A stretch of DNA of 64,000 nt from Verrucomicrobiia bacterium (GTDB taxonomy: Bacteria; Verrucomicrobiota; Verrucomicrobiia; Palsa-1439), in contig JBEKLM010000001.1 of assembly GCA_050010195.1 (NCBI GenBank), positions 65,045 through 129,044 of the forward strand, in the 5' to 3' direction. The position numbers were made by a program, and so were the translations under genes. Positions 352 through 31,300 of this stretch are shown in pieces; within the stretch, counting starts at the first letter, position 1, and each line of letters opens with the position of its first letter. The notes under the pieces are model-generated. The model was not told the DNA's origin. It saw nothing but the letters and a program-made list of their open reading frames with translations, and did not search any database.

Positions 352-2430
352 ATGATTTTTTCACCGAAGCGGGTTTTCGCAGTCACCGTCACGCTCGCCC
401 TTCTCACTTCCCCCTTCGCACATCGGCTCTACGCCGCTGACCCCATCGAACCCGTCGACCCCGTCCGCCGCCAGATTGACGAGGCCGTCGCGCGCGTCAA
501 ACCCGCGTTGGTCCGCATCAAGGTCGTCGCCACGCAGTATTATCAGGGCCGCGAGGTGAAATTCGAAGCCAGCGGCAGCGGCGTCATCATCAGCAAGGAA
601 GGCCACGTCATTACCAATCACCACGTCGCCGGCCACGCCACCCGCATCGTCGTCATCCTCGCCAGCAACGAGGAAATCCCCGCCGACCTCGTCGGCACTG
701 ACCCGCTCGCCGACATCTCCGTCCTGAAATTGAAGCCCGACGGCAAACGCGAGTTCCCCACCGTCGAATTTGGCGACTCCGACGCCATGCGCGTCGGCGA
801 TTCGGTGCTGGCGATGGGCAGCCCGCTGGCCATGTCGCAATCCGTCACACTCGGCATCGTCAGCAACATCAAAATGGTCATGCCGGAAGCGTTCTCATCC
901 TCGCGGTTCACGCTCGACGGCGAAGACGTCGGTTCGCTCGTCCGCTGGATCGGCCACGACGCCGACATTTATCCCGGCAACTCGGGCGGCCCGCTCGTCA
1001 ACCTCAAAGGCCAGGTCATCGGCATCAACGAAATCAGCTTCGGCCTCAGCGGCGCCATCCCCGGCAACCTCGCCCAGCGCGTCGCCCGCCAGATCATCGA
1101 AAAGGGCAAGGTCAGCCGCAGTTGGCTCGGCGTCGAAATCCAGCCGTTGCTCAAGGAAGACAAGGACAACCGCGGCGTGTTGATTTCGGACGTGCTGGAT
1201 GATTCGCCGTCGGCCAAAGCGGGCGTTCATTCGGGCGACATCCTCCTGAAAATCGCCGGCCGGGACGTGCTCGTGCGCTACGCCGAGGAAATCCCGCTCC
1301 TGAACCAGATGGTCGCGGAATTGCCCGTCGGCCAGGAAATCGAAGTGGTGGTGCGACGCGGCGGCCAGGAGAAGACGCTGAAACTGACCACCGCTGAGCG
1401 CGAACAAAACCAGCGCCAACAATTTGAACTCAAACAGTGGGGCGTCACCGCCCGCGATATCTCCGCCCTCGCGGCCCGCGAACTGAAACTCAAAAGCCTC
1501 GACGGCGTGATCGTGACCTCGATCCGCCCGGGGGGGCCCTCCGACGACGCCAAACCGCCCGTCCAGACCGGCGACGTGCTCACGGAAATTAACAGTACCC
1601 CGATCCGCAACGTCGCCGAGATGCAGGACGTGACCGACAAGATCACCACCGGCAAATCGAAACCCGTCCCGACGCGCCTCGGCTTTCTTCGCAAGACGGA
1701 GCAATTGCTCACCGTCGTCAGGGTCGGCATCAAGGAACTCGAAGATCCCGGCCTCGAAGCCCAAAAGGCCTGGCTGCCCGTCGCCGCACAGGCCATCACC
1801 AGCGATTTGGCCGAGCAACTGGGCAGCCCGGGCCTGCATGGCGTCCGCCTCACCCAGGTCTACGCCGATAGCACCGCGGAAAAAGCCGGCCTGAAAGTCG
1901 GGGACCTGATTCTGGCCCTCGACGGCGACCCCATCGAAGCCTCGCAGCCAGGCGACGAGGAGATTCTCGACACGATGGTGCGCCAGTACAAAATCGGCGC
2001 CACCGCGACGCTGGCCGTCCGGCGCGGCGCGGACAAACTCAGCATCCCGGTCGAACTGGTCCGGTCCCCGAAACTCGAACGCGAAATGAAGAAGTACCGC
2101 GACGAGGATTTCGAGTTTACTGCGCGCGACACGACGTTCATCGACAAGGTGCAGGAACACTGGTCGCAGGAACAGCCGGGCGCGCTGGTCACCGAGGTCA
2201 AGGAGGGCGGTTGGGCTGCGCTCGGCCGCCTGGGCATCGGCGACCTGATCACCGCGGTCGATGGCGAGCCCGTGACGGACGTGGCCTCGCTGAAGCTAAA
2301 AATGAAACACGTCGCCGCCGAAAGACCAAAGACCACGGTCTTGCGCGTCATCCGCGGCATTCATACCCTGTACCTGGAATTCGAGCCAAACTGGGACGGA
2401 CACAAGGCGGTCCTGAAAGGAAACCTGTAG
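352..2430 (+). CDS. DegP/HtrA-family periplasmic serine endoprotease with PDZ domains
   Basis: Signal peptide MIFSPKRVFAVTVTLALLTSPFA from ATG 352; His (HHVAGH), Asp and GNSGGPLVN catalytic-serine motifs; two or three PDZ-like repeats (GVLISDVLDDSPSAKAG..., GDVLTEINS..., GDLILALDGDPI...). The ORF-track start at 196 is an upstream in-frame extension. Confidence 0.85.
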   Translation: MIFSPKRVFAVTVTLALLTSPFAHRLYAADPIEPVDPVRRQIDEAVARVKPALVRIKVVATQYYQGREVKFEASGSGVIISKEGHVITNHHVAGHATRIVVILASNEEIPADLVGTDPLADISVLKLKPDGKREFPTVEFGDSDAMRVGDSVLAMGSPLAMSQSVTLGIVSNIKMVMPEAFSSSRFTLDGEDVGSLVRWIGHDADIYPGNSGGPLVNLKGQVIGINEISFGLSGAIPGNLAQRVARQIIEKGKVSRSWLGVEIQPLLKEDKDNRGVLISDVLDDSPSAKAGVHSGDILLKIAGRDVLVRYAEEIPLLNQMVAELPVGQEIEVVVRRGGQEKTLKLTTAEREQNQRQQFELKQWGVTARDISALAARELKLKSLDGVIVTSIRPGGPSDDAKPPVQTGDVLTEINSTPIRNVAEMQDVTDKITTGKSKPVPTRLGFLRKTEQLLTVVRVGIKELEDPGLEAQKAWLPVAAQAITSDLAEQLGSPGLHGVRLTQVYADSTAEKAGLKVGDLILALDGDPIEASQPGDEEILDTMVRQYKIGATATLAVRRGADKLSIPVELVRSPKLEREMKKYRDEDFEFTARDTTFIDKVQEHWSQEQPGALVTEVKEGGWAALGRLGIGDLITAVDGEPVTDVASLKLKMKHVAAERPKTTVLRVIRGIHTLYLEFEPNWDGHKAVLKGNL

Positions 2431-3357
2431 ATGAAAAGACATAGCACGTTGATCGTATCCATCACCCTCGCCTTGGCGGGCGCAATGATCTCTCTTCCCG
2501 CGCGAGCCGACGACCTCGCCAAGTCCGGCCGGGACATCCTGGCCAAATCCCAGGGCGCTGTCGTCACTGTGAAGCTCGCGATCAAACAGAGCGTCTCGAT
2601 GGGCGGGCGCGAAAACAAGTCGGAAAGTAAGACCGAGACCACGGGCACCGTCGTCGATCCGTCGGGCTTGACCGTTGTCTCCCTGGCGACCACCGACCCC
2701 AGCAGCACGGTCAAAGACGCGTACGCCCACGCGATCGCCGCCCGCGGCGGTGACATGTCGCAGTTCAAGTTCGACAGCGAACTCAACGATGTGAAAATTG
2801 TATTGGCCGACGGGACCGAGATCCCCGCGGACGTCGTACTGCGGGACAAGGACTTGGACCTCGCGTACCTGCGTCCATCCGACAAGCCTGCCAAACCGCT
2901 CGCCTGCATTGACCTGACCAAGGATGCGAAAGCGCGGATTCTCGACGAGGTGATCGTGATCAATCGTCTCAGCCAGGCCGCCAATCGCGCCCCCGCCGTC
3001 TCCATCGGCCGCATCGAAGGCATCATCGACAAACCGCGCACGTTCTATCTGCTCGGCCAATCGATGTGGGCCTACTCCCTCGGCGCGCCGGTGTTCGCCC
3101 TTGACGGTAAACTCGTCGGGATCGTGTTGCTGCGGAGCGCCAAAACCCAGACCGATCAGGATAGCGGGTTCATCTTCAGCAACCTCAACCAATGGGGCAT
3201 GATGCCGGTGATTCTACCGGCGTCCGACATCGTCGATGGCGCCAAGCAGGCCCTCGAAGCCAAAGCACCCGTGGCCGAAGACAAACCGGTAACGGGAGAA
3301 AAGCCGGCCACAAACGAAGCAGCGAAACCGGCCCCCGCGCCCGCGAAATCTCCGTAA
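2431..3357 (+). CDS. Secreted HtrA-like trypsin-fold paralogue, apparently catalytically degenerate (pseudo-protease), with Ala/Pro/Lys-rich C-terminal tail
   Basis: ATG immediately follows the DegP stop (TAGATG). Signal peptide MKRHSTLIVSITLALAGAMISLPARA. Segment YSLGAPVFALDGKLVGIVLL aligns with GNSGGPLVNLKGQVIGI of the upstream protease but has Leu in place of the nucleophilic Ser. Tail PVAEDKPVTGEKPATNEAAKPAPAPAKSP. Confidence 0.6.
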   Translation: MKRHSTLIVSITLALAGAMISLPARADDLAKSGRDILAKSQGAVVTVKLAIKQSVSMGGRENKSESKTETTGTVVDPSGLTVVSLATTDPSSTVKDAYAHAIAARGGDMSQFKFDSELNDVKIVLADGTEIPADVVLRDKDLDLAYLRPSDKPAKPLACIDLTKDAKARILDEVIVINRLSQAANRAPAVSIGRIEGIIDKPRTFYLLGQSMWAYSLGAPVFALDGKLVGIVLLRSAKTQTDQDSGFIFSNLNQWGMMPVILPASDIVDGAKQALEAKAPVAEDKPVTGEKPATNEAAKPAPAPAKSP

Positions 3358-4422
3358 CTACGGTTTGATTTCGACAAGATCGATCTTGGCGCGGTCGGAT
3401 TGACCGAGGCCGAGACGGCTCGCCGTCGCGATGTGGCTGGCCTGCAGTCCGGCCAATGTCACTTTGGCTCCCCGCCGCCGCGCGTCAATGGCCTCCAGGC
3501 AGAGCGAATCGATGGCCACGGGATCCGTGCTGAAATACAGCGCGCCGTTGTTCCACGAATACTGCGGTTTGAATCCCGGTCCCCCGGCATAACCGGCAAT
3601 CAGCCCATCCATAATATTGAGCACCAGCTTCCCGCGGACCTGCGGCATGGCGCAAATCTCCGCGATCATCGGATCGCCGTGCTGGCCCAACGTTTCAAAC
3701 CGGCGCGTGTTGTCCACCATGCCGAGCGAGAGGTTGTACAGGCAACCCGCCAGGCCGCACACGTCGTTGTCCTGAAGAACCGGGACGTTGATCAACTTGG
3801 TGATGGTCCCCGTCACGAGTTTCGGAAGATGCGAACGCTTGCTCAGGACCTCGTCGTCCTTGCCGAACAGCAGATCCCCCCAGATCAGTTTCCCCGCGAG
3901 ATTGTTCTGGAAGTAGACCTTGGCGTCCCAGCCGGTCCCGTCAATTACCGACGCGACCGTCATGGAATTCGTCCCGCGGACCGGAAGGTAGCCGGCCGCC
4001 TGCATCTGAAGCGGATCGCGGTCGAAAATATACACGTTCGTGCCCAACACGCCCGCCGCGCGCAACCCGTGCGCAATCGCCTCCACCACCGCGCGCCGCG
4101 TCGACTGGAGTGGGCCGGATTGCGTGCTGATCTTGATGCCGACCACGTCGTTGCTGGACACAAAATGCCGCCACGCCGCCGCTTCGTCGCTTTCCCCCGT
4201 GAGCGATTGGATGCCTGCGGCAACCATCGCCTGCGCCTTCGCGGGGTCCACGCTGTAATTCTCCACCGCGCTCGCATCGCGCACGAGCACCACCCGGCTC
4301 TTCACAACGGGAGCGAGCGCCGGGGAATTGGTGTCCTCGGCGTGTCCTGATGTCAATCCCAGTGACGCCAGAACGGCAAAGATGACCGCGGTGGCAGGTG
4401 CCCTAGACATGCCCGTCATCAT
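3358..4422 (-). CDS. DUF362-domain protein with N-terminal signal peptide
   Basis: Likely start MMTGMSRAPATAVIFAVLASLGLTSG (signal peptide) at revcomp ATG 4420-4422. Body matches the DUF362 architecture (…VYIFDRDPLQ…GCLYNLSLGMVDN…). The ORF-track start at 4626 adds an Arg/Lys-rich extension that is probably spurious. Confidence 0.55.
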   Translation of the reverse strand: MMTGMSRAPATAVIFAVLASLGLTSGHAEDTNSPALAPVVKSRVVLVRDASAVENYSVDPAKAQAMVAAGIQSLTGESDEAAAWRHFVSSNDVVGIKISTQSGPLQSTRRAVVEAIAHGLRAAGVLGTNVYIFDRDPLQMQAAGYLPVRGTNSMTVASVIDGTGWDAKVYFQNNLAGKLIWGDLLFGKDDEVLSKRSHLPKLVTGTITKLINVPVLQDNDVCGLAGCLYNLSLGMVDNTRRFETLGQHGDPMIAEICAMPQVRGKLVLNIMDGLIAGYAGGPGFKPQYSWNNGALYFSTDPVAIDSLCLEAIDARRRGAKVTLAGLQASHIATASRLGLGQSDRAKIDLVEIKP

Positions 4423-4459
4423 GGCAAGTGGGGCAGAAAATGCAAGAAGTGTGACACAC

Positions 4460-6088
4460 TCAGAATTTCCCCAGTAATCTGGCGAGCCATCCAGCGCTCC
4501 GCGCGTGACTAAATGCTGCATCGAGTCTTTTTTCGGCGGCTTCAGCACGCTCTGCTGCCTTTTGCGCGGCAGCTTCCGCGCTGCGCATGCCCTCCACCAA
4601 CCGTAAGGTTTCGTTGACGGCTTCAATCGCTTTTTGCGTCAGGTTTGCCGCCTCCTCACGCGCCGCTTCCGCAAGCCGTCGTTCTTCGGCTGCGGCCTGT
4701 TTGATTTTGGTAGTTTCTCTATAGATACTTGCTGCCTTCTCTCGTATTTCCTCAATGCTTAGCGGTGTGTCACTCTCGGACGCAAACGCCAGTGCTTCTT
4801 TCTCAACCAAGATGTCACGGTTGCCAAGGTCACGCCGAAGGTGAATCTGGTCGAGTTTTCGAACGCGCGAGAGTGCGACATAGGTTTGCCCTCCCGACCA
4901 AATGCCGTTGCCCAAATCCAGCCACATTGGCCCCTCGACTGTTTGGCCTTGCGCTTTGTGAATGGTCATTGCCCAAGCCAGCTTTAAAGGCATCTGAGTG
5001 TAGATAGCCCTCCCGCTTTCGATCATCTCACGGCCATTCCACTTCCAAATCGGGAATTCCCACGAGTATTTTCGCACAGGGATCTCAATGCCATTCGACA
5101 CAATAACAACCTCTTCGTCGTCGAACCTTACGACTTTGCCCACGCTCCCATTCACCAACCCCGGGCCAGCACCGTTCGCACAAACGAGCACCTGTGCCCC
5201 AACTTTCAGCTCAACCTTGTCTGGAACTGGCTTCGTTTTCCATTCGTCCGGCCAATGTTCTTTCGTGGCAGTGTAGGGTTTGACCTGACCAGGCAGCAGA
5301 TCGAGCTTCTGCTTGTTCATCCTATCGGCCAGTTTGTTCGTTGGCACGAGAGAGATTGCCTCCTCAGGTTGAGTCCCTGAGACCCTGTGGTTGAGAAGCG
5401 AAAAATCCTTTGGTTGTGTTCGACATTCTCGGAGCCTCTGCAAGCATTCAATAAAATCCCTTCCCTCGTGGTCTTCGTTGAGGTGACGAAAGATCTTCGT
5501 GAGCGTGATCCGTGAGAAGTTTCCGGACCCATACGCACGGGCCTTGAAAAACCAAGGCGAATCCCATCCGTCCTCGCCTTGGCTCTGAGCATGCCATTGT
5601 CCATTAAAAGCGGGCAAGTCGCCCGTCTCGACGATTGGCGGAAGCTGAAGCACATCACCAAACAGTCCAATTTGTACACCCCCGAAAGGCTCGCCCGGAC
5701 ATGGGCCATGATCGCGGAGAAAGGCGTCGATGGCGTCAAACAGATCGGCGCGAACCATCGAGACCTCATCAATAAGCAAGACTTCTAGGTCACGCAGATA
5801 ACGACGTTGGTTCTCAGCCTGCTCGGTGCTGCTCTTAAGAAGAGGATGCGTCCGCTTTTGAAGACCTATTTCGAACCCAAAGAAGCTATGAATTGTACTG
5901 CCGCCAACATTTAATGCGGCCAACCCGGTAGGCGCCACCACCTCAACCCGCTTGCGTGAGTGTTCCCTTAACCGCCGCAGTAGGAGGCTCTTGCCGGTAC
6001 CCGCGCTGCCAAGCACTAGGAAGTTTCGGCGAGTATTGTGAAACAGAAGCTCCACCCGCTCGGTTTCGGATGTCGCTTCAAACGGCAT
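4460..6088 (-). CDS. PIF1/RecD-family (SF1B) DNA helicase with C-terminal Ala/Glu-rich coiled-coil tail
   Basis: Walker A GSAGTGKS; Walker B LLIDEVSMV; motif V-like AMTIHKAQGQTVEG; SH3-like region. The C-terminal ~100 aa are low-complexity AAEERRLAEAAREEAANL… Local GC visibly lower (~50%) than flanks. Confidence 0.7.
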   Translation of the reverse strand: MPFEATSETERVELLFHNTRRNFLVLGSAGTGKSLLLRRLREHSRKRVEVVAPTGLAALNVGGSTIHSFFGFEIGLQKRTHPLLKSSTEQAENQRRYLRDLEVLLIDEVSMVRADLFDAIDAFLRDHGPCPGEPFGGVQIGLFGDVLQLPPIVETGDLPAFNGQWHAQSQGEDGWDSPWFFKARAYGSGNFSRITLTKIFRHLNEDHEGRDFIECLQRLRECRTQPKDFSLLNHRVSGTQPEEAISLVPTNKLADRMNKQKLDLLPGQVKPYTATKEHWPDEWKTKPVPDKVELKVGAQVLVCANGAGPGLVNGSVGKVVRFDDEEVVIVSNGIEIPVRKYSWEFPIWKWNGREMIESGRAIYTQMPLKLAWAMTIHKAQGQTVEGPMWLDLGNGIWSGGQTYVALSRVRKLDQIHLRRDLGNRDILVEKEALAFASESDTPLSIEEIREKAASIYRETTKIKQAAAEERRLAEAAREEAANLTQKAIEAVNETLRLVEGMRSAEAAAQKAAERAEAAEKRLDAAFSHARSAGWLARLLGKF

Positions 6089-23605: not shown

Positions 23606-24349
23606 ATGAGCACCGATTTGAAAGGAAAGGTCGCATTGGTCACCGGCGCGTCGCGCGGGATCGGTCGCGCCATCGCCGAGCGGCTCAGCCGTGACGGCGC
23701 CGCGGTCGCCATAAATTATGCCTCTCAGGCGGCTGCCGCCCGGCAACTGGCCAGCGAAATTGAATCCGCCGGTGGAAAAGCGTTTGCCATTCAGGCCGAC
23801 GTGGGGCGCGTGGCGGACGTCGTCCGGCTCTTCGACGAAACCATCGCCCGCTTCGGGAAGCTCGATATTCTGGTGAATAACGCCGGCATCATGTCCACCA
23901 AGCCGGTCAGGGACGTGTCCGAGACCGAGTACGACCGCATTTTCGCGGTCAACGTGAAAGGCACCTTCTTCGCCTGCCAGCAGGCCGCCACCCGCCTCGC
24001 CGACGGCGGCCGCATCATCAATCTGTCCAGTTCGACCACCGCCCGGATCATGCCGAACTACGGCGCCTATGTCGCCACCAAGGGCGCGGTGGAACAGTTG
24101 ACCCGTTCCCTCGCGGGGGAACTCGGACCGCGCCGCATCACCGTCAATGCGATTTCACCGGGCCCGACCGAGACGGAGTTGTTCATGGACGGCAAAACCC
24201 CCGAACAGCTCCAGCGTTTCGCCCAGCAGGCCGCCCTCGGCCGGCTGGGTCAACCCGCCGAAATTGCCGAGGTCGTCGCCTTCCTCGCCTCCGACGCCGC
24301 CGCCTGGGTCACCGGCCAAAACCTCCGCGTCAACGGCGGCATCGCGTAA
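23606..24349 (+). CDS. SDR-family oxidoreductase (FabG-like 3-oxoacyl reductase)
   Basis: TGASRGIGRAIA cofactor motif, NNAG, catalytic S…Y…K (YVATKGAVEQ). ATG 23606 (MSTDLKGK). Confidence 0.85.
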   Translation: MSTDLKGKVALVTGASRGIGRAIAERLSRDGAAVAINYASQAAAARQLASEIESAGGKAFAIQADVGRVADVVRLFDETIARFGKLDILVNNAGIMSTKPVRDVSETEYDRIFAVNVKGTFFACQQAATRLADGGRIINLSSSTTARIMPNYGAYVATKGAVEQLTRSLAGELGPRRITVNAISPGPTETELFMDGKTPEQLQRFAQQAALGRLGQPAEIAEVVAFLASDAAAWVTGQNLRVNGGIA

Positions 24350-24610
24350 AACAAAACCGCCGCCCGGCGACGGCCTCTGCTTTCAGCCGATTCATTCCAG
24401 CCTGCGAGCCACGCCCGCAATGCAAGCGGGCATTGCCGACCACCTTTGGAGTTTGTAGGAAGTGGCGCAACGGCAACGGCTTAATTCGAATTACCGATAG
24501 GCCGGCGTTGCGGCAATTCGGGGTAGGGCCTGATACGGGAACGGCAACCTGAGTGGTTAAGAAATAGAGCTTGACACTGTTTTTAGTAAATATTACGAAT
24601 ATTAACCATT

Positions 24611-25273
24611 ATGAAATCACAATCTGAATTCTTAACCGCAATCCGTGACGACTGGACCCCCGAGAACATTGCCGGTTTGGTTTCAGCGATCACCGCTGGC
24701 TATGCGGCGGTGATCGAAAGAACAAACCCAAGCGTCGACCCGATTTACGACACACCGAATCTGTCACTCCTGCAGGGATACACACGATGGAACTTCGTAG
24801 ACTCTCGACTGTATCGCGCCTGCGACATAGGCCTTATCACGGGGATTAAACCGAAGTGGGTCCCTCTGACCGAAAATGGTACGGGGATTATGGCGCTGGA
24901 ATTGCAGGGTAGATTCACGTCCTTGATGGCGCATCACCTTCAGAATGCCGCCGACCCCCCAAGGTACTCGGAGCTGCGTTACGATCGGCGCCTTCGCAAC
25001 TGGCAGAATCCTATGCTTCCCGGGTACGGCGCTGACGAGCCGACCAACGGACTAATCCATTTGACGTTGGTTCACGGCAACAAGAATGCGGAGTTCGCGT
25101 TTCTCCGGATTTTCGACAATCCAGACGACCCGCAATCCTACGTCGCCGCGTCGGGGAACATCATGCTGAACCCGTCGATTATGATTTCGACCGAAGCGGA
25201 GCATGTCGAGGAGCCGAAGATTGAGCTGAAGAAGGAATCCCGCCAAGACGAACAACGAGCGCAGAACGAATGA
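24611..25273 (+). CDS. Hypothetical 220-aa protein (candidate toxin/effector partner of the downstream HTH-ImmA/IrrE gene)
   Basis: No recognisable motif, soluble, acidic/basic C-terminal tail. Stop overlaps the downstream start (ATGA). Lies in a low-GC islet; AT-rich promoter-like region with TTGACA at 24571. Confidence 0.5.
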   Translation: MKSQSEFLTAIRDDWTPENIAGLVSAITAGYAAVIERTNPSVDPIYDTPNLSLLQGYTRWNFVDSRLYRACDIGLITGIKPKWVPLTENGTGIMALELQGRFTSLMAHHLQNAADPPRYSELRYDRRLRNWQNPMLPGYGADEPTNGLIHLTLVHGNKNAEFAFLRIFDNPDDPQSYVAASGNIMLNPSIMISTEAEHVEEPKIELKKESRQDEQRAQNE

Positions 25274-26421
25274 ATCGCGCCGACCCAGAGAGAATCAGTC
25301 AAGCGAGAGAACTGGCCGGTCTTAGCAAGACGAAACTCGCTGACCTACTGGATGTGACGCCCGCCGCTGTCGCACAATGGGAAAGCGGTGTGAAGAGCCC
25401 GACAATGGATAACATAGTCGCGCTATCTCGTTCGTTGAATTTTCCAATGCCGCTGTTGCTAAGGGTGATTCCAAGAGAATTGTCCCATAAGGGGCCGGTC
25501 ACGTTTCGCGCATGGAACTCTGCAAACACACGTCGAGCCAATCGCCGAGCAGAACGATTGGCCGAACTAGTGGCCGAGGTGTTCCTGTGGCTGGAGCAGC
25601 ATATATCGTTGCCATCACCATCACTTCCGGAAATCAGCCATCGAGCGGACGTTGAGATGGCGGCCATAGAATGCAGAAGGACCTGGAAGCTCGGTGATCG
25701 CCCCATTCTGAAACTCGGAGAACTGATCGAATCAAAAGGCATAGCCATTGCGAGAGCCTCATTTGCCGACACCCGTTTCGACGCATTTTCGTGCATCATA
25801 AACGGTCGTCCATACGTTTTCTTGGGAGATGAGAAACTAGATCGCGCTCGGTCTCGCTTCGACGCTGCCCATGAGCTCGGACATCTTTTATTGCACCAAC
25901 ATCTGACAGAATCAGATTTCCTAACCGCAGACACGCTAAACACAATAGAAGCCGAAGCAAACCGTTTCGCAAGTGCGTTCCTGATGCCCGAAGGGACGTT
26001 CCTACCAGATGTTATGGATGCCAGCTTGGATGGATTTCTGAAATTGAAACCCAGATGGGGTGTTTCAGTCCAAGCAATGATCGTGCGTTCACACGATCTT
26101 GGGATCATCACTGACAACCAATACCGTGAGCTGTTTCGTCAGACAGGCTTGAAGGGATGGCGAAGAGCTAAGGGCGAGCCATTTGACGACATGGTACCAG
26201 ACATCCAAGGTTCGCTAGGAAAGAAGAGCTTAGAACTTTTGGAGTCAAACGCCGTTATACATGGCTGGGAGATCCCGACCGAGCTCCCAATGCCGACGCA
26301 TGTACTGTGCGAGGTGTTCCGAGCGAACCCTCAATTGTTCAGTCCCTCCGAGTTCGGGAATATAATCCCTTTCGAGAGGCCCGCTGAGGGTGACTCTACG
26401 GGCCGAAGGAGGAGTAATTGA
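25270..26421 (+). CDS. HTH_XRE (Cro/C1) DNA-binding domain fused to ImmA/IrrE-family (COG2856) zinc metallopeptidase
   Basis: N-terminal ISQARELAGLSKTKLADLLDVTPAAVAQWESGVKSPTMDNIVALSRSL is a classic XRE HTH. HELGHLLLH HEXXH plus downstream EANRFASAFLMPE glutamate match the ImmA/IrrE protease core. Confidence 0.8.
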   Translation: MNRADPERISQARELAGLSKTKLADLLDVTPAAVAQWESGVKSPTMDNIVALSRSLNFPMPLLLRVIPRELSHKGPVTFRAWNSANTRRANRRAERLAELVAEVFLWLEQHISLPSPSLPEISHRADVEMAAIECRRTWKLGDRPILKLGELIESKGIAIARASFADTRFDAFSCIINGRPYVFLGDEKLDRARSRFDAAHELGHLLLHQHLTESDFLTADTLNTIEAEANRFASAFLMPEGTFLPDVMDASLDGFLKLKPRWGVSVQAMIVRSHDLGIITDNQYRELFRQTGLKGWRRAKGEPFDDMVPDIQGSLGKKSLELLESNAVIHGWEIPTELPMPTHVLCEVFRANPQLFSPSEFGNIIPFERPAEGDSTGRRRSN

Positions 26422-26488
26422 AGCAGATCAACATGAGAGGAGACGATTACAATGTGCGGAGCTAAGAGGAAACCGCTGAGCTTCACAC

Positions 26489-26917
26489 TCAACGCTTGGG
26501 GAACAAATAATTGGCCACTATGATGAAAATACTTATGACGCTCGCGGTCGTCCCCCCAACCACGGCCAAGAGAACGCTGTCAGAAAGTTTGAAAACAGTC
26601 CTGATGGCGTAAAGTGCTTTCCCGTGAGAAATAATCATCGGAGGTGATGTCGTGTCGCTCAGGAAGCCCTGTAACAGCAGCATAGCGAACACACCGACAA
26701 GCCAGAGGCAGAGCATGCTGAAAATCTTGCGCGCATACTCTTTTCGCTCCGTGATGTCCTGACGGAATCCCTCCAGTTCCGCCTTCTGCCGATCGACCTC
26801 AATCTGCTTGGCATAATCCTTCTGTTCTTCTTCTGCTTCTGGCGTCGGCGCAGGAGCCGTGGGCTCTTTGATCTGCTTTAGGTTAATCATGGGCGCATCG
26901 GCGACCACAATCGTCAA
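26489..26917 (-). CDS. Small two-TM membrane protein (candidate membrane-acting toxin, PanT-like)
   Basis: Two hydrophobic helices (IFSMLCLWLVGVFAMLLLQGF and LLAVVGGTTASVISIFIIVANYLF). TTG start overlapping the upstream stop (TTGA); alternative ATG at 26890. Confidence 0.45.
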   Translation of the reverse strand: MTIVVADAPMINLKQIKEPTAPAPTPEAEEEQKDYAKQIEVDRQKAELEGFRQDITERKEYARKIFSMLCLWLVGVFAMLLLQGFLSDTTSPPMIISHGKALYAIRTVFKLSDSVLLAVVGGTTASVISIFIIVANYLFPKR

Positions 26918-27423
26918 TTCTTGGACTTTTGAAGGAAATATTCCTTTATCAAGCCATCCGGTATGTCGGCTCCCTTTTTGTCCTTCCCGCCCAACTCAAA
27001 CCAAGTTTTGAACCAAGGGGTGTCGGGTTGGTGTGTAAGTGTCGACAGCTGCAGTGCCGAGAAGCCGCCATATACTTCCCAAATTTTGTCGAAGAATTCC
27101 CCGAGAGTATGATCACTTGGCAGGCAACATTCGACGTACTTAATCTCCCCCTTTTTCATCCAAGCTTCCAAATCGAGGTCGGTGGCGTGATCCGTGATTG
27201 GCTCTGTTCCATATTGCTTGAATGCGTGATACACCGAGGGCACGACCGGGCCAAACCTCCACGCCTCAATCGATTCGTTCAGAAGCGCGGAATCTTTGAG
27301 TGCCAAATGCCAGCCGTGAGCAAAATAGAGTAGCTTTAGCAGCTTCATCGGGGTGACTGAGCTTCCCCGGCCGCTAGCAATATCCAGAATATGATTGGCG
27401 ACTGCCTTCGACGGATACCCCAT
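26914..27423 (-). CDS. Panacea-domain (DUF4065, GepA/SocA-like) protein, candidate PanA antitoxin
   Basis: MKLLKLLYFAHGWHLAL…EAWRFGPVVPSVYHAF matches the DUF4065/Panacea core (KLqKLlYfaqgW … aw..GPV…vY). 169 aa. Confidence 0.7.
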   Translation of the reverse strand: MGYPSKAVANHILDIASGRGSSVTPMKLLKLLYFAHGWHLALKDSALLNESIEAWRFGPVVPSVYHAFKQYGTEPITDHATDLDLEAWMKKGEIKYVECCLPSDHTLGEFFDKIWEVYGGFSALQLSTLTHQPDTPWFKTWFELGGKDKKGADIPDGLIKEYFLQKSKN

Positions 27424-27557
27424 GAATGCACCTTTTCACATGTTGCTAGATTCGCGTCAAGCACAACGATGTACCACACTTTTGTGTGGTGTCAAGCTTT
27501 TTGAATCTTTGCGTCCATCCGATTTCAAACCGAGCCACCATCCCGCTTTCGTCGGAG

Positions 27558-27586
27558 TTGACATCCCCCGCCGGATTTGCTAGCTT
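27558..27586 (+). promoter_or_regulatory. Candidate sigma70-type promoter for the aro leader transcript (TTGACA-17-TGcTAGCTT, extended -10)
   Basis: TTGACA 27558-27563, 17-nt spacer, TGn + TAGCTT 27578-27586. The predicted TSS would be only ~4 nt before the leader ATG, so this is uncertain. Confidence 0.3.
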
Positions 27587-27596
27587 ACATTTGAAC

Positions 27597-27686
27597 ATGA
27601 AGTCAGTGCATCAATACATCTCCGCAGTCCGGGCGTCGTATTATTGGTTTTACTTTAGCCAGCCCTGTCTGCGGGCTGTGTGTTGA
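27597..27686 (+). CDS. 29-codon attenuator leader peptide MKSVHQYISAVRASYYWFYFSQPCLRAVC with six consecutive aromatic codons
   Basis: Codons 27639-27656 = UAU UAU UGG UUU UAC UUU (Y Y W F Y F). The stop is 22 nt before an intrinsic terminator, directly upstream of the DAHP synthase gene. No obvious SD. Confidence 0.55.
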   Translation: MKSVHQYISAVRASYYWFYFSQPCLRAVC

Positions 27687-27707
27687 TGCGTAAACGTTGA
27701 CACCCAA

Positions 27708-27736
27708 CCGTCCCGCAGACGCGGGACGGTTTTTTT
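27708..27736 (+). terminator. Rho-independent terminator (attenuator 3:4 hairpin) ccgtcccgc-agac-gcgggacgg + T7
   Basis: 9-bp GC-rich stem 27708-27716/27721-27729, 4-nt loop, seven T 27730-27736. Upstream segment 27667-27675 (gtctgcggg) is complementary to 27712-27720 (cccgcagac) = antiterminator. 27660-27665 (cagccc) pairs with 27673-27678 (gggctg) = anti-antiterminator. Confidence 0.7.
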
Positions 27737-27780
27737 ATTGCCCAAAACCGAACCGCGTACAGGACATAAGGAGCAAAGGA

Positions 27781-28806
27781 ATGATCATCGTGTTAAAGCC
27801 GGGAACCAGTGAACAGGATGTCCAGCAGGTCGCGGACGCGGTGAAGAAGTTCAATTACGAGCCCCGCCTGATTCGCGGCGTGGAGCGCACCGTCGTCGCT
27901 TGCATCGGCGATGAACGCAACCATCACACCCTCGAATCCCTCATCGTGTTGCCGCAGGTCGAGAGCGTCACTCCCATTCAGAAGAAGTACAAACTCGTCA
28001 GCCGCGAATACCAGGGACGCGATACCGTGCTCGACGTGGCCGGACTCAAAATCGGCGGCGGCACGTTCCACGTGGTGGCGGGCCCGTGCTCGGTGGAAAA
28101 CCAGACGCAAACTTTGGAAACCGCGAAAGCGGTGAAGTCGTACGGCGCGACACTCTTTCGTGGTGGCGCATTCAAGCCGCGCACGTCGCCGTACGACTTC
28201 CAGGGATTGGGCCGCGAGGGGCTTGAGATGTTGAAGCAGGCCCGCGCGGCCACGGGATTGCCCATCGTGACCGAAGTGATGTCGCCGCAAGACGTGGAAA
28301 TGGTGGCGTCTTACGCCGACATTCTGCAGATCGGGGCGCGCAACGCCCAAAATGTCCCGTTGCTGGCCGAGGTCGCGGCGTCGGGCAAGGTCATCCTGCT
28401 CAAACGCGGGGTGTCCGGGTTGATCGACGAATGGCTGCTGGCCGCCGAGTACATCTGCGTGCATGGCAACAGCAAAGTGATCCTCTGCGAGCGGGGTATC
28501 CGCACGTTCGAGCACGCCTGCCGCAACACGCTCGATCTCAGCGCGGTCGCGGTCGCCAAAAAGGAAACGCACCTGCCGGTGTTCGTGGACCCGAGCCATG
28601 CGGCGGGCCGATTCGACATGGTGATCCCGCTCGCTCGCGCCGCCGTTGCGGTGGGCGCGGACGGTTTGCTGGTGGAAGTCCATCCCGATCCGGCTGCGGC
28701 ACTTAGTGACGGGGGCCAGCAGCTCAAACCCAAGCAGTTCGGCCAGTTGATGGCGGAAATTCGCCCCATTGTCGAAGTGATGGGCAAACAGTTGGGCGGC
28801 GCTTAG
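27781..28806 (+). CDS. 3-deoxy-7-phosphoheptulonate (DAHP) synthase, type I-beta with N-terminal ACT/ferredoxin-like regulatory domain
   Basis: Strong SD aaggagcaaaggaATG. N-terminal MIIVLKPGTSEQDVQQVADAVKKF regulatory domain. KDO8P/DAHP synthase barrel motifs (KPRTSPYDFQG, GARNAQN, VDPSHA). Confidence 0.9.
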   Translation: MIIVLKPGTSEQDVQQVADAVKKFNYEPRLIRGVERTVVACIGDERNHHTLESLIVLPQVESVTPIQKKYKLVSREYQGRDTVLDVAGLKIGGGTFHVVAGPCSVENQTQTLETAKAVKSYGATLFRGGAFKPRTSPYDFQGLGREGLEMLKQARAATGLPIVTEVMSPQDVEMVASYADILQIGARNAQNVPLLAEVAASGKVILLKRGVSGLIDEWLLAAEYICVHGNSKVILCERGIRTFEHACRNTLDLSAVAVAKKETHLPVFVDPSHAAGRFDMVIPLARAAVAVGADGLLVEVHPDPAAALSDGGQQLKPKQFGQLMAEIRPIVEVMGKQLGGA

Positions 28807-28829
28807 CAGCCGTTGAAAAGTGGTGTAGC

Positions 28830-28860
28830 GGCGCTTCTGTGAAGCGCCAAGCCGTTTGTC
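28830..28860 (+). terminator. Candidate terminator hairpin after DAHP synthase (ggcgcttc-tgt-gaagcgcc followed by weak T-rich tract)
   Basis: 8-bp stem 28830-28837/28841-28848 then aagccgtttgtctctt. The U-tract is imperfect. Confidence 0.3.
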
Positions 28861-28909
28861 TCTTGGGAAATTCTGTGGCTCACAAAGCCACCGCTACAAC
28901 GGAACTTTG

Positions 28910-31300
28910 TCAGCCGTTGTGTGAGTCTTGGGACCATTTGCCGAGACACAGCCAGGCGGTTATCGCGATGCTGATGATGCTGATCGCAGCACCCAGCTTC
29001 AATGCGGGCGGCGAGAAGCTCACGACAATCCGCCCGGCGCCCGCTTGGGGAATTACGAGGCCTTGGAAGGCGCCGAAGACTTCGATCAGCTTTATACGTT
29101 TATCGTTCGGCACCCAGCCGGGGTAGAATGCTTGGGAAACGAACACGATACCGGGTCGGCTCACGCCGTAGGTGATCGAATAGCTCTCGGGCGTCAGGCT
29201 CTGGAATTGAACGGAGTCGTTATCGCCCGCTCCCGGGCTCGGCTCGTCCCCGCGTAACCCGTCGAATGAGAAGGGTTCGCTTACGGCCACCTCGCTGCGC
29301 CAATCAATATCGCCTCGTTCCAACGCGTCCAGGAGCGCGTTTCTCGAGTCGTAATGCCGGATGCGTGAAAAGAATCGCGCGCGCGGCAGCGAATTTGTGT
29401 ACGCGCCCAACCAGTCTTTGCCGTTTTCATCGCGTTCCATGGTGACCTGGATATTTTGAATGCCGATCTTGGCCGCCTGATTGGTCATGGCTTGAAATCT
29501 CGCAATGTTGTCCAGGTAAAAACTCGTGTAGCCTTCCGGGACTTCCAAATAGTCATGAAAATACGGCAGGTTGCGAAACGTGGCGATTTCCTCGCTAACC
29601 CGGCCCCGGACGATCTGGCCGAATCGAAATGGGCCGCGGTGTTCACGATAATCTTCCAGAAGCGTGAGGAGGCGATTGGTCTCGGGGTAACACTCATCCG
29701 GATTGGCGTTGCCGCGATGAAAACCTTCATACGCGTAACAAAAATCGGCTGCGGCAACCAGCAACAGGCTGTACAGGCATATGGTTTGGAACACCCAGCG
29801 CTTCGGATTGCGAATCGCCCCCAGGATCGCCAGCGCACACAGGATCGCCAAGAGCAAGGCAATCAGTGTTTCATGCCTGGACCAGGCCAGCCGGTCAAAG
29901 CTCCGCAATCGGCCGCCCAGGTGTCCATCGCCCGCGTAGAGCACCGCCGCCAGACAGCCGTAGCCGGCCGGAAAAAGCAATGCTGGCCACAAGCGCAACT
30001 GCGGCGCTCGACGACGAAGGAGGTCGACCGCGTACGCGCAGGCAGTCGCCGCGGCAAACGTGGCAACACACGCCATCCTCGCAGGGACGCGGAAAAGCGT
30101 CACGCCCGGAAGACACCAATACAGGACCTGATACAAGCCGCCATATCGACCCATCATGAACCACGTGGCCATGACCCAGGTCGTCAGGAAAAACCCGATC
30201 CCCCGCTTGTCTTCGATCCTCCGCCAATTGAAAAGAATCAGAAGAAGAGCCAGCCAGAAGATTTGTCCGGAGTAGGCGCCGAATTCCCAGTACTGCCAAA
30301 AGCCGGGTCCGCCATGTACAGAACGGTTGAGCATAACGGTTTGGCTATGCCGATCAAAGCCCCAGAACGGATGGGGAGACGTGAACGACCGCGAGACTCC
30401 GAAGAAATTGGGCACGAATAGCGTCAGCAATTGATCGTACGGCAACGAGGAGTCAGCCAACGCTTCAAAGGACCGGCTCGGTCGGGCCGTCCGCCACCAA
30501 TTCTCGGCCCCCGGCACCACCATGATACCGGCCAGTCCGAAGACGAGCACGAACGTACCGACAATTCTCGGCACGTCCCTTCCGGCGACTTGGCGGGCAG
30601 CCATGCGGGCGCTGGAACCTTCCTCACGGCGAACGCCGTAGCAGCGATACAACCAGTAGGCGGTCACCAGATACCAACAGTAGAGCGTCACCTGTGGGAA
30701 TCCTGCCAGCACGGACGCTACCGTGGCACCCACGAGCCCGAGCCAGGACAACCGCCTCCGGTCACTCGTGAGGCGGTGGACAAAAAGCAGTTGGAGTGGA
30801 AGCCACGCAAATGCCTGAAACATCGTGAAGCTCGCGATTCGCAGTGAAGAAAAGCCGGAGAAACAGAACACGAGCGCACCGGTGACCGCCGCGATCGGAC
30901 TGAACTTCAGCCGCTTGAGAAAGGCGTACAGGAACAGACCGCCTAACAGGTAATGCAATACGATATACCTCTGGTAGGCGACGAACGGCAATCGTCCATT
31001 GTGAACAAAAGGAATCAGGAGCCATTGCGCCGGATAGAACCCGCCCACCTGAATGTCCGAGTAAAAGGGCGACCCGTCGCGGACCCCGGGGAACCAAAGC
31101 GGCAGCCGCCCCCCTTGGACCGATTTGGCGAAATAATTCACGCCCGGATAAAACTGCGTCAGGGTGTCGTCCCAGATGAAACATCGTCCGTTCAGAAAAC
31201 CCCAGTAAAAGACGCCCAGAAATGCGGCCAGAAAAGCCACGGCGCAAGCATCGGGCGCCAGCCGCCTCAGGCGCGGAGCGTTGAGAAGTTTCCCCTCCAT
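28910..31300 (-). CDS. YfhO-family large polytopic membrane protein (glycosyltransferase-like)
   Basis: ~800 aa, >12 TM segments, with conserved N-terminal region FIWDDTLTQFYPGVNYF… typical of YfhO. Start MEGKLLNAP at revcomp ATG 31298-31300. Confidence 0.65.
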   Translation of the reverse strand: MEGKLLNAPRLRRLAPDACAVAFLAAFLGVFYWGFLNGRCFIWDDTLTQFYPGVNYFAKSVQGGRLPLWFPGVRDGSPFYSDIQVGGFYPAQWLLIPFVHNGRLPFVAYQRYIVLHYLLGGLFLYAFLKRLKFSPIAAVTGALVFCFSGFSSLRIASFTMFQAFAWLPLQLLFVHRLTSDRRRLSWLGLVGATVASVLAGFPQVTLYCWYLVTAYWLYRCYGVRREEGSSARMAARQVAGRDVPRIVGTFVLVFGLAGIMVVPGAENWWRTARPSRSFEALADSSLPYDQLLTLFVPNFFGVSRSFTSPHPFWGFDRHSQTVMLNRSVHGGPGFWQYWEFGAYSGQIFWLALLLILFNWRRIEDKRGIGFFLTTWVMATWFMMGRYGGLYQVLYWCLPGVTLFRVPARMACVATFAAATACAYAVDLLRRRAPQLRLWPALLFPAGYGCLAAVLYAGDGHLGGRLRSFDRLAWSRHETLIALLLAILCALAILGAIRNPKRWVFQTICLYSLLLVAAADFCYAYEGFHRGNANPDECYPETNRLLTLLEDYREHRGPFRFGQIVRGRVSEEIATFRNLPYFHDYLEVPEGYTSFYLDNIARFQAMTNQAAKIGIQNIQVTMERDENGKDWLGAYTNSLPRARFFSRIRHYDSRNALLDALERGDIDWRSEVAVSEPFSFDGLRGDEPSPGAGDNDSVQFQSLTPESYSITYGVSRPGIVFVSQAFYPGWVPNDKRIKLIEVFGAFQGLVIPQAGAGRIVVSFSPPALKLGAAISIISIAITAWLCLGKWSQDSHNG

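Follow-up and report, generated by a model that had tools for sequence, protein, structure and literature searches.

The locus described here lies in a 64,000-nucleotide stretch of a Verrucomicrobiia metagenome-assembled genome (MAG; GCA_050010195.1, contig JBEKLM010000001.1, positions 65,045 to 129,044 of the forward strand), the whole of which is referred to as the window, and it consists of two adjacent genes on the minus strand. The first gene encodes a Panacea-domain protein, PanA, and the second a small protein with two predicted transmembrane (TM) helices, PanT; the deposited records of the same MAG are MGD0057861.1 and MGD0057860.1, respectively. Both open reading frames (ORFs) are present where a preliminary description of this DNA had placed them (27423..26914, followed by an ORF ending at 26489), and its suggestion of a putative PanA-PanT pair with a membrane protein is supported by the near-constant pairing with PanA, by co-divergence of the two proteins, by membership of toxin cluster T3 and by a profile-profile match. 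We consider it probable that the gene pair is a T3-type PanA-PanT toxin-antitoxin (TA) operon as defined by Kurata et al. 2022, located in a small horizontally acquired low-GC islet, in which a depolarising membrane toxin PanT is neutralised by directly binding PanA. In window positions, the two genes are:

27423..26914, minus strand: panA, 169 amino acids, ATG start.
26917..26489, minus strand: ORF downstream of panA, 142 amino acids counted from a TTG whose TTGA overlaps the panA stop.
26489..26890, minus strand: panT within this ORF, encoding a putative small two-TM membrane toxin, 133 amino acids from ATG 26890.
GTG 26908 and TTG 26917, minus strand: alternative panT starts, giving 139 and 142 amino acids.

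PanA belongs to the Panacea proteins. Residues 28-137 of 169 match the Pfam family SocA_Panacea PF13274 (formerly DUF4065) with an E-value of 3.3e-20, the match spans profile positions 1-112 of 113, and its score of 73.5 bits (gathering score 25.7) settles the hidden Markov model check proposed in the preliminary description. The domain stands alone, with no extra N- or C-terminal domain. The best NCBIfam match was SocA_antitoxin NF047745 (E 9e-36, 123.1 bits), and because this score lies below the equivalog cut-off of 190, PanA is regarded as a PanA-type Panacea protein and not as a SocA equivalog or orthologue; its deposited annotation reads 'type II TA system antitoxin SocA domain-containing protein'. 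PanA also matches the phage protein family phrog_1281 in PHROGs (E 5.5e-40). The sequences KLLKLLYFAHGW and EAWRFGPVVPSVY, quoted earlier as the Panacea signature, were both found in the 169-residue protein. PanA carries a W-x-[FY]-G-P-V motif (EAWRFGPVVPSVY) and a T-H-x4-P-W motif (LTHQPDTPW), both invariant or nearly so in paired PanAs, and residues G58, P59, V60, H131 and W137 are invariant across 30 of them. The primers used for mutagenesis of Vibrio harveyi PanA encode KFGPVVPSVY. Neither PanA nor PanT matched a PADLOC-DB 2.0 family at E <= 1, and sequence searches of the PDB with PanA and the PanT profile returned nothing.

Annotation sources differ on the length of PanT, which is 133 amino acids in the NCBI record, 139 at ENA and 142 at JGI, and the preliminary description had offered both ATG 26890 and the overlapping TTG as starts. 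The closest divergent relative (locus L062) carries a 1-nt indel after the panA stop and ahead of the ATG; owing to this indel, neither TTG nor GTG is in frame there, and conservation of the nucleotides sets in just upstream of ATG 26890. The evidence thus favours ATG 26890, 23 nt past the panA stop, over the overlapping TTG, whose frame the indel breaks. Compared with the same 76%-identical relative, panT has a ratio of nonsynonymous to synonymous substitution rates (dN/dS) of 0.17, indicative of purifying selection; by region, the ratio is 0.044 in TM2 and 0.36 in the loop, the highest of the four regions. A single-sequence search yielded 43 PanT homologues, and a profile search of 1.84 billion cluster representatives gave 4,980 matches at E <= 0.001, including 2,669 at E <= 1e-10. 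PanT matched nothing significantly in Pfam, NCBIfam, PADLOC or PHROGs, gave no Foldseek match at E <= 0.001 in BFVD, and had no tblastn match at E <= 1 in plasmid and phage collections. The subfamily to which it belongs, called NYLFPK-type here from its C-terminal residues, is large and is without a Pfam, NCBIfam or PADLOC family model.

The anatomy of PanT was examined in a family alignment of 36 members (A1), by Kyte-Doolittle hydropathy and in an AlphaFold (AF2) model, in which confidence is expressed as the predicted local distance difference test (pLDDT). Residue numbers follow the 142-residue form. The regions, from the N-terminus, are:

PanT N-terminus: variable, acidic and proline-rich, with a mean net charge of about -4.8 in the family.
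26726..26785, minus strand: pre-TM helix, residues 45-64, consensus E..L.QDI.ERK.YA..IF (A1, AF2).
26657..26725, minus strand: TM1, residues 65-87, with W72 invariant (Kyte-Doolittle, A1, AF2).
26579..26656, minus strand: variable, predicted extracytoplasmic loop, residues 88-113, of varying length among homologues and low pLDDT.
26492..26578, minus strand: TM2 and C-terminal tail, residues 114-142, signature GGTTAxVIxIFxIVANYLFPK.

Residues 1-64 of window PanT contain 14 D/E and 11 K/R. The 19-residue Kyte-Doolittle windows reach 2.3 in TM1, and a second hydrophobic segment covers about residues 114-137, so that hydropathy and charge counts bear out the two hydrophobic helices and charged N-terminal region reported earlier for this protein. 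The AF2 model has a mean pLDDT of 73.8, with residues 1-25 disordered, a continuous helix over residues 26-86 and a further helix over residues 113-138; pLDDT is about 80-90 over the stretch of the pre-TM helix. In A1, R58 of the pre-TM helix is invariant and Y61 nearly so, and T123, T124, V134, Y137 and F139 are invariant in TM2 and the tail. G122, S126, S129 and N136 lie on one side of the TM2 helix and form a small/polar face. Mean K/R counts are 4.7 for the 15 residues ahead of TM1, 1.2 for the loop and 2.1 for the part after TM2. This positive-inside pattern suggests an N-in/C-in topology with both ends of PanT in the cytoplasm.

The pairing of the two genes is conserved. All seven metagenome contexts have unrelated flanking genes, and in each the PanT homologue directly follows a PF13274 gene on the same strand. 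Among GTDB species genomes, a PanA homologue (E 1e-30 to 1e-51 to window PanA) is directly upstream in 41 of 45 loci, which come from Acidobacteriota, Latescibacterota, Verrucomicrobiota, Proteobacteria, Planctomycetota, Gemmatimonadota, Chloroflexota and Bdellovibrionota, and the pair is present in 16/16 IMG/VR viral loci. In 45 of the 46 distinct pairs, the candidate panT start nearest to the panA stop lies -46 to +12 nt from it. PanA and PanT also co-diverge: their pairwise identity matrices correlate with r = 0.71, a value reached by none of 2000 permutations in a Mantel test. Of the four GTDB loci without PanA, two hold PanT-like ORFs, one holds a fragment of 21 residues and one, in Bdellovibrio, an intact orphan. 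The two PanT-like ORFs (L027 and L055, at about locus positions 3950-4340) have neither an upstream PanA nor an obvious start codon and are probably decaying remnants, as would be expected of PanA-less copies if a toxin cannot persist alone.

The panAT pair is a mobile, co-evolving two-gene module. In one Latescibacterota MAG, a 2.2-kb unit consisting of an IS1595-family transposase gene (PF12762, 1.1e-40) followed by panA and panT is present at three genomic places with 100% identity (L041, L042 and L043, locus positions 2434-4660); this insertion sequence (IS) element thus carries panAT as passenger cargo. At locus L006 (positions 2085-4997), a DDE transposase gene lies between two PanA paralogues and a PanT homologue follows the second PanA only. 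The best plasmid match to PanA (40.5% identity) is on the Salinibacter ruber M8 plasmid pSR56 (L060, positions 1986-3387), where PanA is paired with a different partner of 300 amino acids whose S_4TM match (E 0.0017) is sub-threshold; the locus illustrates that the toxin partner can be swapped while PanA stays closely related.

A total of 1,268 PanA-linked TA loci with 88 toxin clusters was predicted by Kurata et al. 2022 (PMC8832971); of the nine PanAT pairs that they validated, three have membrane toxins. Their dataset S1 lists the Pelomonas puraquae CCUG 52769 pair WP_088482758.1/WP_088482757.1 in PanT cluster T3, with the order A|T and a gap of -17. T3 has at least 106 entries in their table, flagged 'noNTD', and includes PanT of Shiga toxin-producing Escherichia coli (STEC) O31, which depolarises and permeabilises the E. 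coli membrane (SYTOX) and is neutralised by its PanA (PMC8832971). Our locus L033 is Roseateles (Pelomonas) puraquae CCUG 52769 and encodes exactly these two listed proteins as PanA and PanT, with the same gap of -17. Window PanT matches the L033 PanT with a phmmer E-value of 7.1e-17 and 40% identity, and the PanA proteins match at E 2.6e-43. Because this similarity to a listed T3 member, WP_088482757.1, is significant, window PanT is a member of T3. In alignment, hydropathy, gene gaps, AF2 model and K/R counts, the window pair agrees with the published description of T3 (PMC8832971).

The E. coli-type PanT was reached through a tblastn match of PanA in phage PhiR47_1, in which genes annotated PanA and PanT lie 22 nt apart, the gap listed in PMC8832971 for the validated pair. 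Compared with the PhiR47_1 PanT alone, the A1 profile gave a probability of 93%. When A1 was aligned by hhalign with a second profile built from 31 enterobacterial homologues of E. coli-type PanT (A2), the probability was 98.0% (E 2.2e-13) over 88 columns that cover the pre-TM helix, TM1 and TM2, and the TM2 and tail of window PanT aligned with ALLGTSTISIVGLVGFVVSGLFKS of E. coli-type PanT; reversed and column-shuffled controls gave at most 1%. A PanA-linked TM protein of 129 amino acids from a Pseudomonas phage was also compared and is unrelated (1.2% hhalign probability). In the Escherichia phages PhiR47_1 and phiSTEC1575-Stx2k (L058 and L059, positions 308-1352), the PanA/PanT pair is found at the extreme left end of temperate phage genomes, including a Stx2-converting one. 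The STEC O31 pair is flagged 'NotPhage' in the table of Kurata et al., despite this position of the E. coli-type pair at phage genome ends.

Around the pair, GC content is 0.51-0.55 across 24500-27999 compared with about 0.58-0.64 in the flanks. A low-GC islet with a second TA-like pair beside panAT had been noted before; the measured dip and the matches of the neighbouring genes to RmrT and RmrA agree with that observation. The neighbouring genes belong to a RosmerTA pair outside the panAT module, and the further features of the islet are:

24611..26421, plus strand: RosmerTA pair, convergent with panAT in the same low-GC islet.
24611-25273, plus strand: rmrT-like gene, 220 amino acids, PADLOC RmrT 8.7e-11.
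25270-26421, plus strand: rmrA, PADLOC RmrA 1.8e-92, Pfam HTH_3 and Peptidase_M78 (M78/ImmA).
27429..27434, minus strand: Shine-Dalgarno-like AAGGTG, 5 nt before the panA ATG, read from the sequence.
27471..27495, minus strand: candidate panAT promoter/operator, with a -35-like TTGACA (27495..27490) and an adjacent inverted repeat.
26474..26494, minus strand: terminator-like hairpin overlapping the panT stop, a weak match in the consensus scan.

The rmrT-like and rmrA genes share a 4-nt overlap, and no hydrophobic stretch was evident when the 220-residue RmrT-like protein was read. The gap between the convergent panT and rmrA genes is 67 bp and holds the terminator-like hairpin. At the islet boundaries there was no tRNA, no flanking direct repeat and no Rfam family, nor did any ORF in 24000-30000 stand out as integrase-like. 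The 9-bp inverted repeat ACCACAC-N4-GTGTGGT (27471-27492), flagged as a hairpin by the scan, lies about 50-70 nt upstream of the panA start. It adjoins TTGACA and may be an operator, though PanA is without a DNA-binding domain.

On its other side, panA borders an intergenic region with features of its own, at 27597-27731 on the plus strand and leading up to the start of a 3-deoxy-D-arabino-heptulosonate 7-phosphate (DAHP) synthase gene at about 27782. This region contains a 29-codon ORF (MKSVHQYISAVRASYYWFYFSQPCLRAVC) with six consecutive aromatic codons (Tyr-Tyr-Trp-Phe-Tyr-Phe) and, just upstream of the DAHP synthase gene, an 11-bp GC-rich hairpin with a U-run at 27706-27731. The sequence GTCTGCGGG (27667-27675) is the exact complement of the 5' arm of this terminator (27711-27719), and an antiterminator could therefore form. 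The leader RNA folds with z = -5.7 against shuffled sequences and matches no Rfam family. This stretch of a Verrucomicrobiia genome resembles a leader-peptide attenuator of the aromatic-amino-acid kind. The listed DAHP synthase ORF (27697-28806, plus strand, 369 amino acids) begins at a TTG within the terminator region; ATG 27782 (MIIVLKPG...), which has AAGGAG ahead of it, is more likely to be the true start.

For the window pair, we infer the toxicity, the depolarising action, the binding site and the biological role as follows. PanA and PanT would be translated from one transcript, with PanA made just ahead of PanT. PanT would reside in the inner membrane with its acidic disordered N-terminus and conserved helix in the cytoplasm; this helix would lead into TM1, and after a short outward loop TM2 would return to the inner side. 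Free PanT would most likely oligomerise through the small/polar face of TM2 and dissipate the membrane potential, and growth would stop. PanA, acting as a type II antitoxin, would bind the cytoplasmic N-terminal region and pre-TM helix of PanT and keep it inactive. This scheme draws on the behaviour of the E. coli T3 toxin and on two further published results. In E. coli, PanA neutralisation is independent of ClpXP and Lon (PMC8832971). Ernits et al. 2023 (PMC10440598) reported that a standalone Panacea domain contacts the unstructured N-terminus and a short pre-TM helix of a membrane PanT, and that Y56A and H120E abolish neutralisation. Because that T12-type toxin is not homologous to window PanT, their binding model serves here as an analogy only, by which the pre-TM helix is proposed as the PanA contact site. 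The pair may serve to stabilise mobile DNA, to defend against phage by abortive infection, or both; panAT modules occur in mobile-DNA contexts that include the IS1595 element, viral contigs and the ends of E. coli phage genomes.

Several points weigh against a T3-type TA operon of this kind. Pairwise BLASTP between window-type and E. coli-type PanT is insignificant (E 2.5) and profile methods alone detect the link, so the relationship to the validated E. coli toxin is remote. The identity of the PhiR47_1 PanT with accession WP_000019185.1 is likely from the identical 22-nt gap and the naming. The model of the binding site derives from a T12 membrane PanT that is not homologous. A consensus scan found no convincing sigma-70 promoter for the panAT operon. 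Finally, Bdellovibrio sp. HCB-162 (L056, NZ_CP178861.1, locus positions 3962-4264) has an intact PanT homologue with no PanA within 4 kb; this orphan is either neutralised in another way or non-toxic at its native level. It is about 100 amino acids long and has the full TM2 motif. Upstream of it lies a 72-aa ORF and then a hairpin with a T-run that reads like the terminator of that ORF.

An extended view makes PanT the membrane effector in abortive infection or superinfection exclusion triggered by phage, with the Panacea protein mainly sensing infection and then releasing or activating PanT. We regard this as possible, if somewhat unlikely. It extends the TA reading without contradicting it, since here, too, PanA would neutralise an effector that is a membrane toxin. 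In its favour are the RosmerTA defence system next to the module in the same islet, the homologous pairs on viral contigs and at the genome ends of temperate E. coli phages, the matches of PanA to phage protein families, and the sensory role proposed for Panacea by Ernits et al. 2023 (PMC10440598). Neither protein, however, matches a PADLOC model, and no phage-defence phenotype of PanAT was found in the literature searched. A more specific version, which we think doubtful, takes the NYLFPK-type PanT, with its about 5,000 clusters at 50% identity and near-invariant polar TM2, as a specific oligomeric ion-conducting effector, a distant relative of the S-4TM effector of cyclic-oligonucleotide-based antiphage signalling systems (CBASS), released by a phage-sensing PanA. 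If true, the 3-kb RosmerTA and PanAT islet would be a compact defence islet of two independent trigger-and-kill TA modules.

PanT might instead be a harmless small membrane protein, an anchor or accessory, that travels with PanA while the real partner or function of PanA lies elsewhere. The Bdellovibrio orphan and the several predicted PanTs that were non-toxic in E. coli (Kurata et al., PMC8832971) would fit this idea, yet we judge it quite unlikely given the near-obligate pairing across phyla, the coupled or overlapping genes, the co-divergence, the startless, remnant-like state of two PanA-less copies and a homology group that contains a validated toxin. Slightly less probable still is a SocA-like (type VI) PanA that acts as a proteolytic adaptor handing PanT to ClpXP or another protease. 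SocA_antitoxin is indeed the best NCBIfam match of PanA, and the two mechanisms are not necessarily exclusive according to Kurata et al. (PMC8832971); against this stand the 123 bits compared with the 190-bit cut-off, the neutralisation in E. coli that needs neither ClpXP nor Lon (PMC8832971), and the nature of SocB, which falls in another cluster (T10) and is a soluble replication inhibitor instead of a membrane protein. That both ORFs are decaying remnants or gene-calling artefacts without present function is hardly credible: gene callers differ on the panT start and no clear promoter was found, but both ORFs are intact, dN/dS is 0.17 and thousands of homologues share the conserved motifs.

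A T3-type PanA-PanT operon at this locus places the hypothetical protein MGD0057860.1, together with a large and mostly metagenomic family, in a toxin group with a characterised representative, and so gives them a testable function. T3-type PanAT reaches many poorly studied phyla (Verrucomicrobiota, Acidobacteriota, Latescibacterota, Planctomycetota and others), riding on IS elements and phages. The conserved TM2 motif and the pre-TM helix are targets for mutagenesis on how a soluble Panacea domain holds a membrane toxin inactive.

Otherwise the finding in the window is confirmatory, as the literature already describes this type of system, how it is built and how it probably acts. Among known systems, SocAB of Caulobacter crescentus (type VI) shares with the window pair the Panacea domain of its antitoxin, whereas SocA is a ClpXP adaptor and SocB, of cluster T10, is a soluble replication inhibitor unlike the membrane protein PanT. 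HokB (type I) and RmrT_D5 (RosmerTA of Gordonia phage Kita) have the effect expected of PanT, namely loss of membrane potential and a general shutdown of macromolecular synthesis. They are unrelated to PanT in sequence, Hok being controlled by an antisense RNA and RmrT by a helix-turn-helix (HTH)-ImmA protein, and PanT is larger, with a long cytoplasmic part. The S-4TM CBASS effector (PF18159) gives weak, sub-threshold matches in six of the 36 PanT family members (best E 0.0026), and two Mucilaginibacter T3 members are labelled CDD 'S_4TM superfamily' in Kurata's table. The PF18159 gathering score is reached by no PanT family member (13.8 bits for the consensus vs 26.9), window PanT has no match at E <= 1, and PanT has two TM helices where S-4TM has four. 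The S-4TM, holin and bestrophin-like matches of the PanT family are all sub-threshold and were set aside as compositional hints only.

In the Bartonella apis/B. choladocola PanAT pair (T12; PanT_D11, PMC10440598), a standalone Panacea protein likewise neutralises a small depolarising toxin with a charged N-terminus and C-terminal TM helices. Homology with this T12 type, which Kurata et al. considered perhaps related to T3, was rejected, as the Aggregatibacter phage S1249 protein YP_003344835.1 (T12) gives an hhalign probability of 1.8% against A1; against the E. coli-type family it gives 2.5%. The predicted T3 pair of Roseateles puraquae is of the same NYLFPK-type subfamily and has the same gene order as the window pair, and its genes overlap; its PanT differs from window PanT in a longer N-terminus and a basic C-terminal tail of roughly 40 residues, and its host belongs to another phylum. 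The E. coli STEC O31 pair (PanA WP_000287252.1/PanT WP_000019185.1) is the experimentally tested one of the two T3-type pairs compared here and is prophage-borne, whereas the window pair lies in a chromosomal islet of a Verrucomicrobiia MAG. E. coli PanT is longer (182 amino acids, with an N-terminus of roughly 107 residues) and ends in GLFKS instead of the NYLFPK of the window family, and the two types share about 22% identity over the 88 aligned columns. In both pairs, a standalone PanA comes first and PanT second (A|T), the N-terminal region of PanT is long and charged or acidic, with two TM helices behind it at the C-terminal end, and the TM2 motifs align (AxxG[GT][TS]TxSxxGxxxxVxxxLF).

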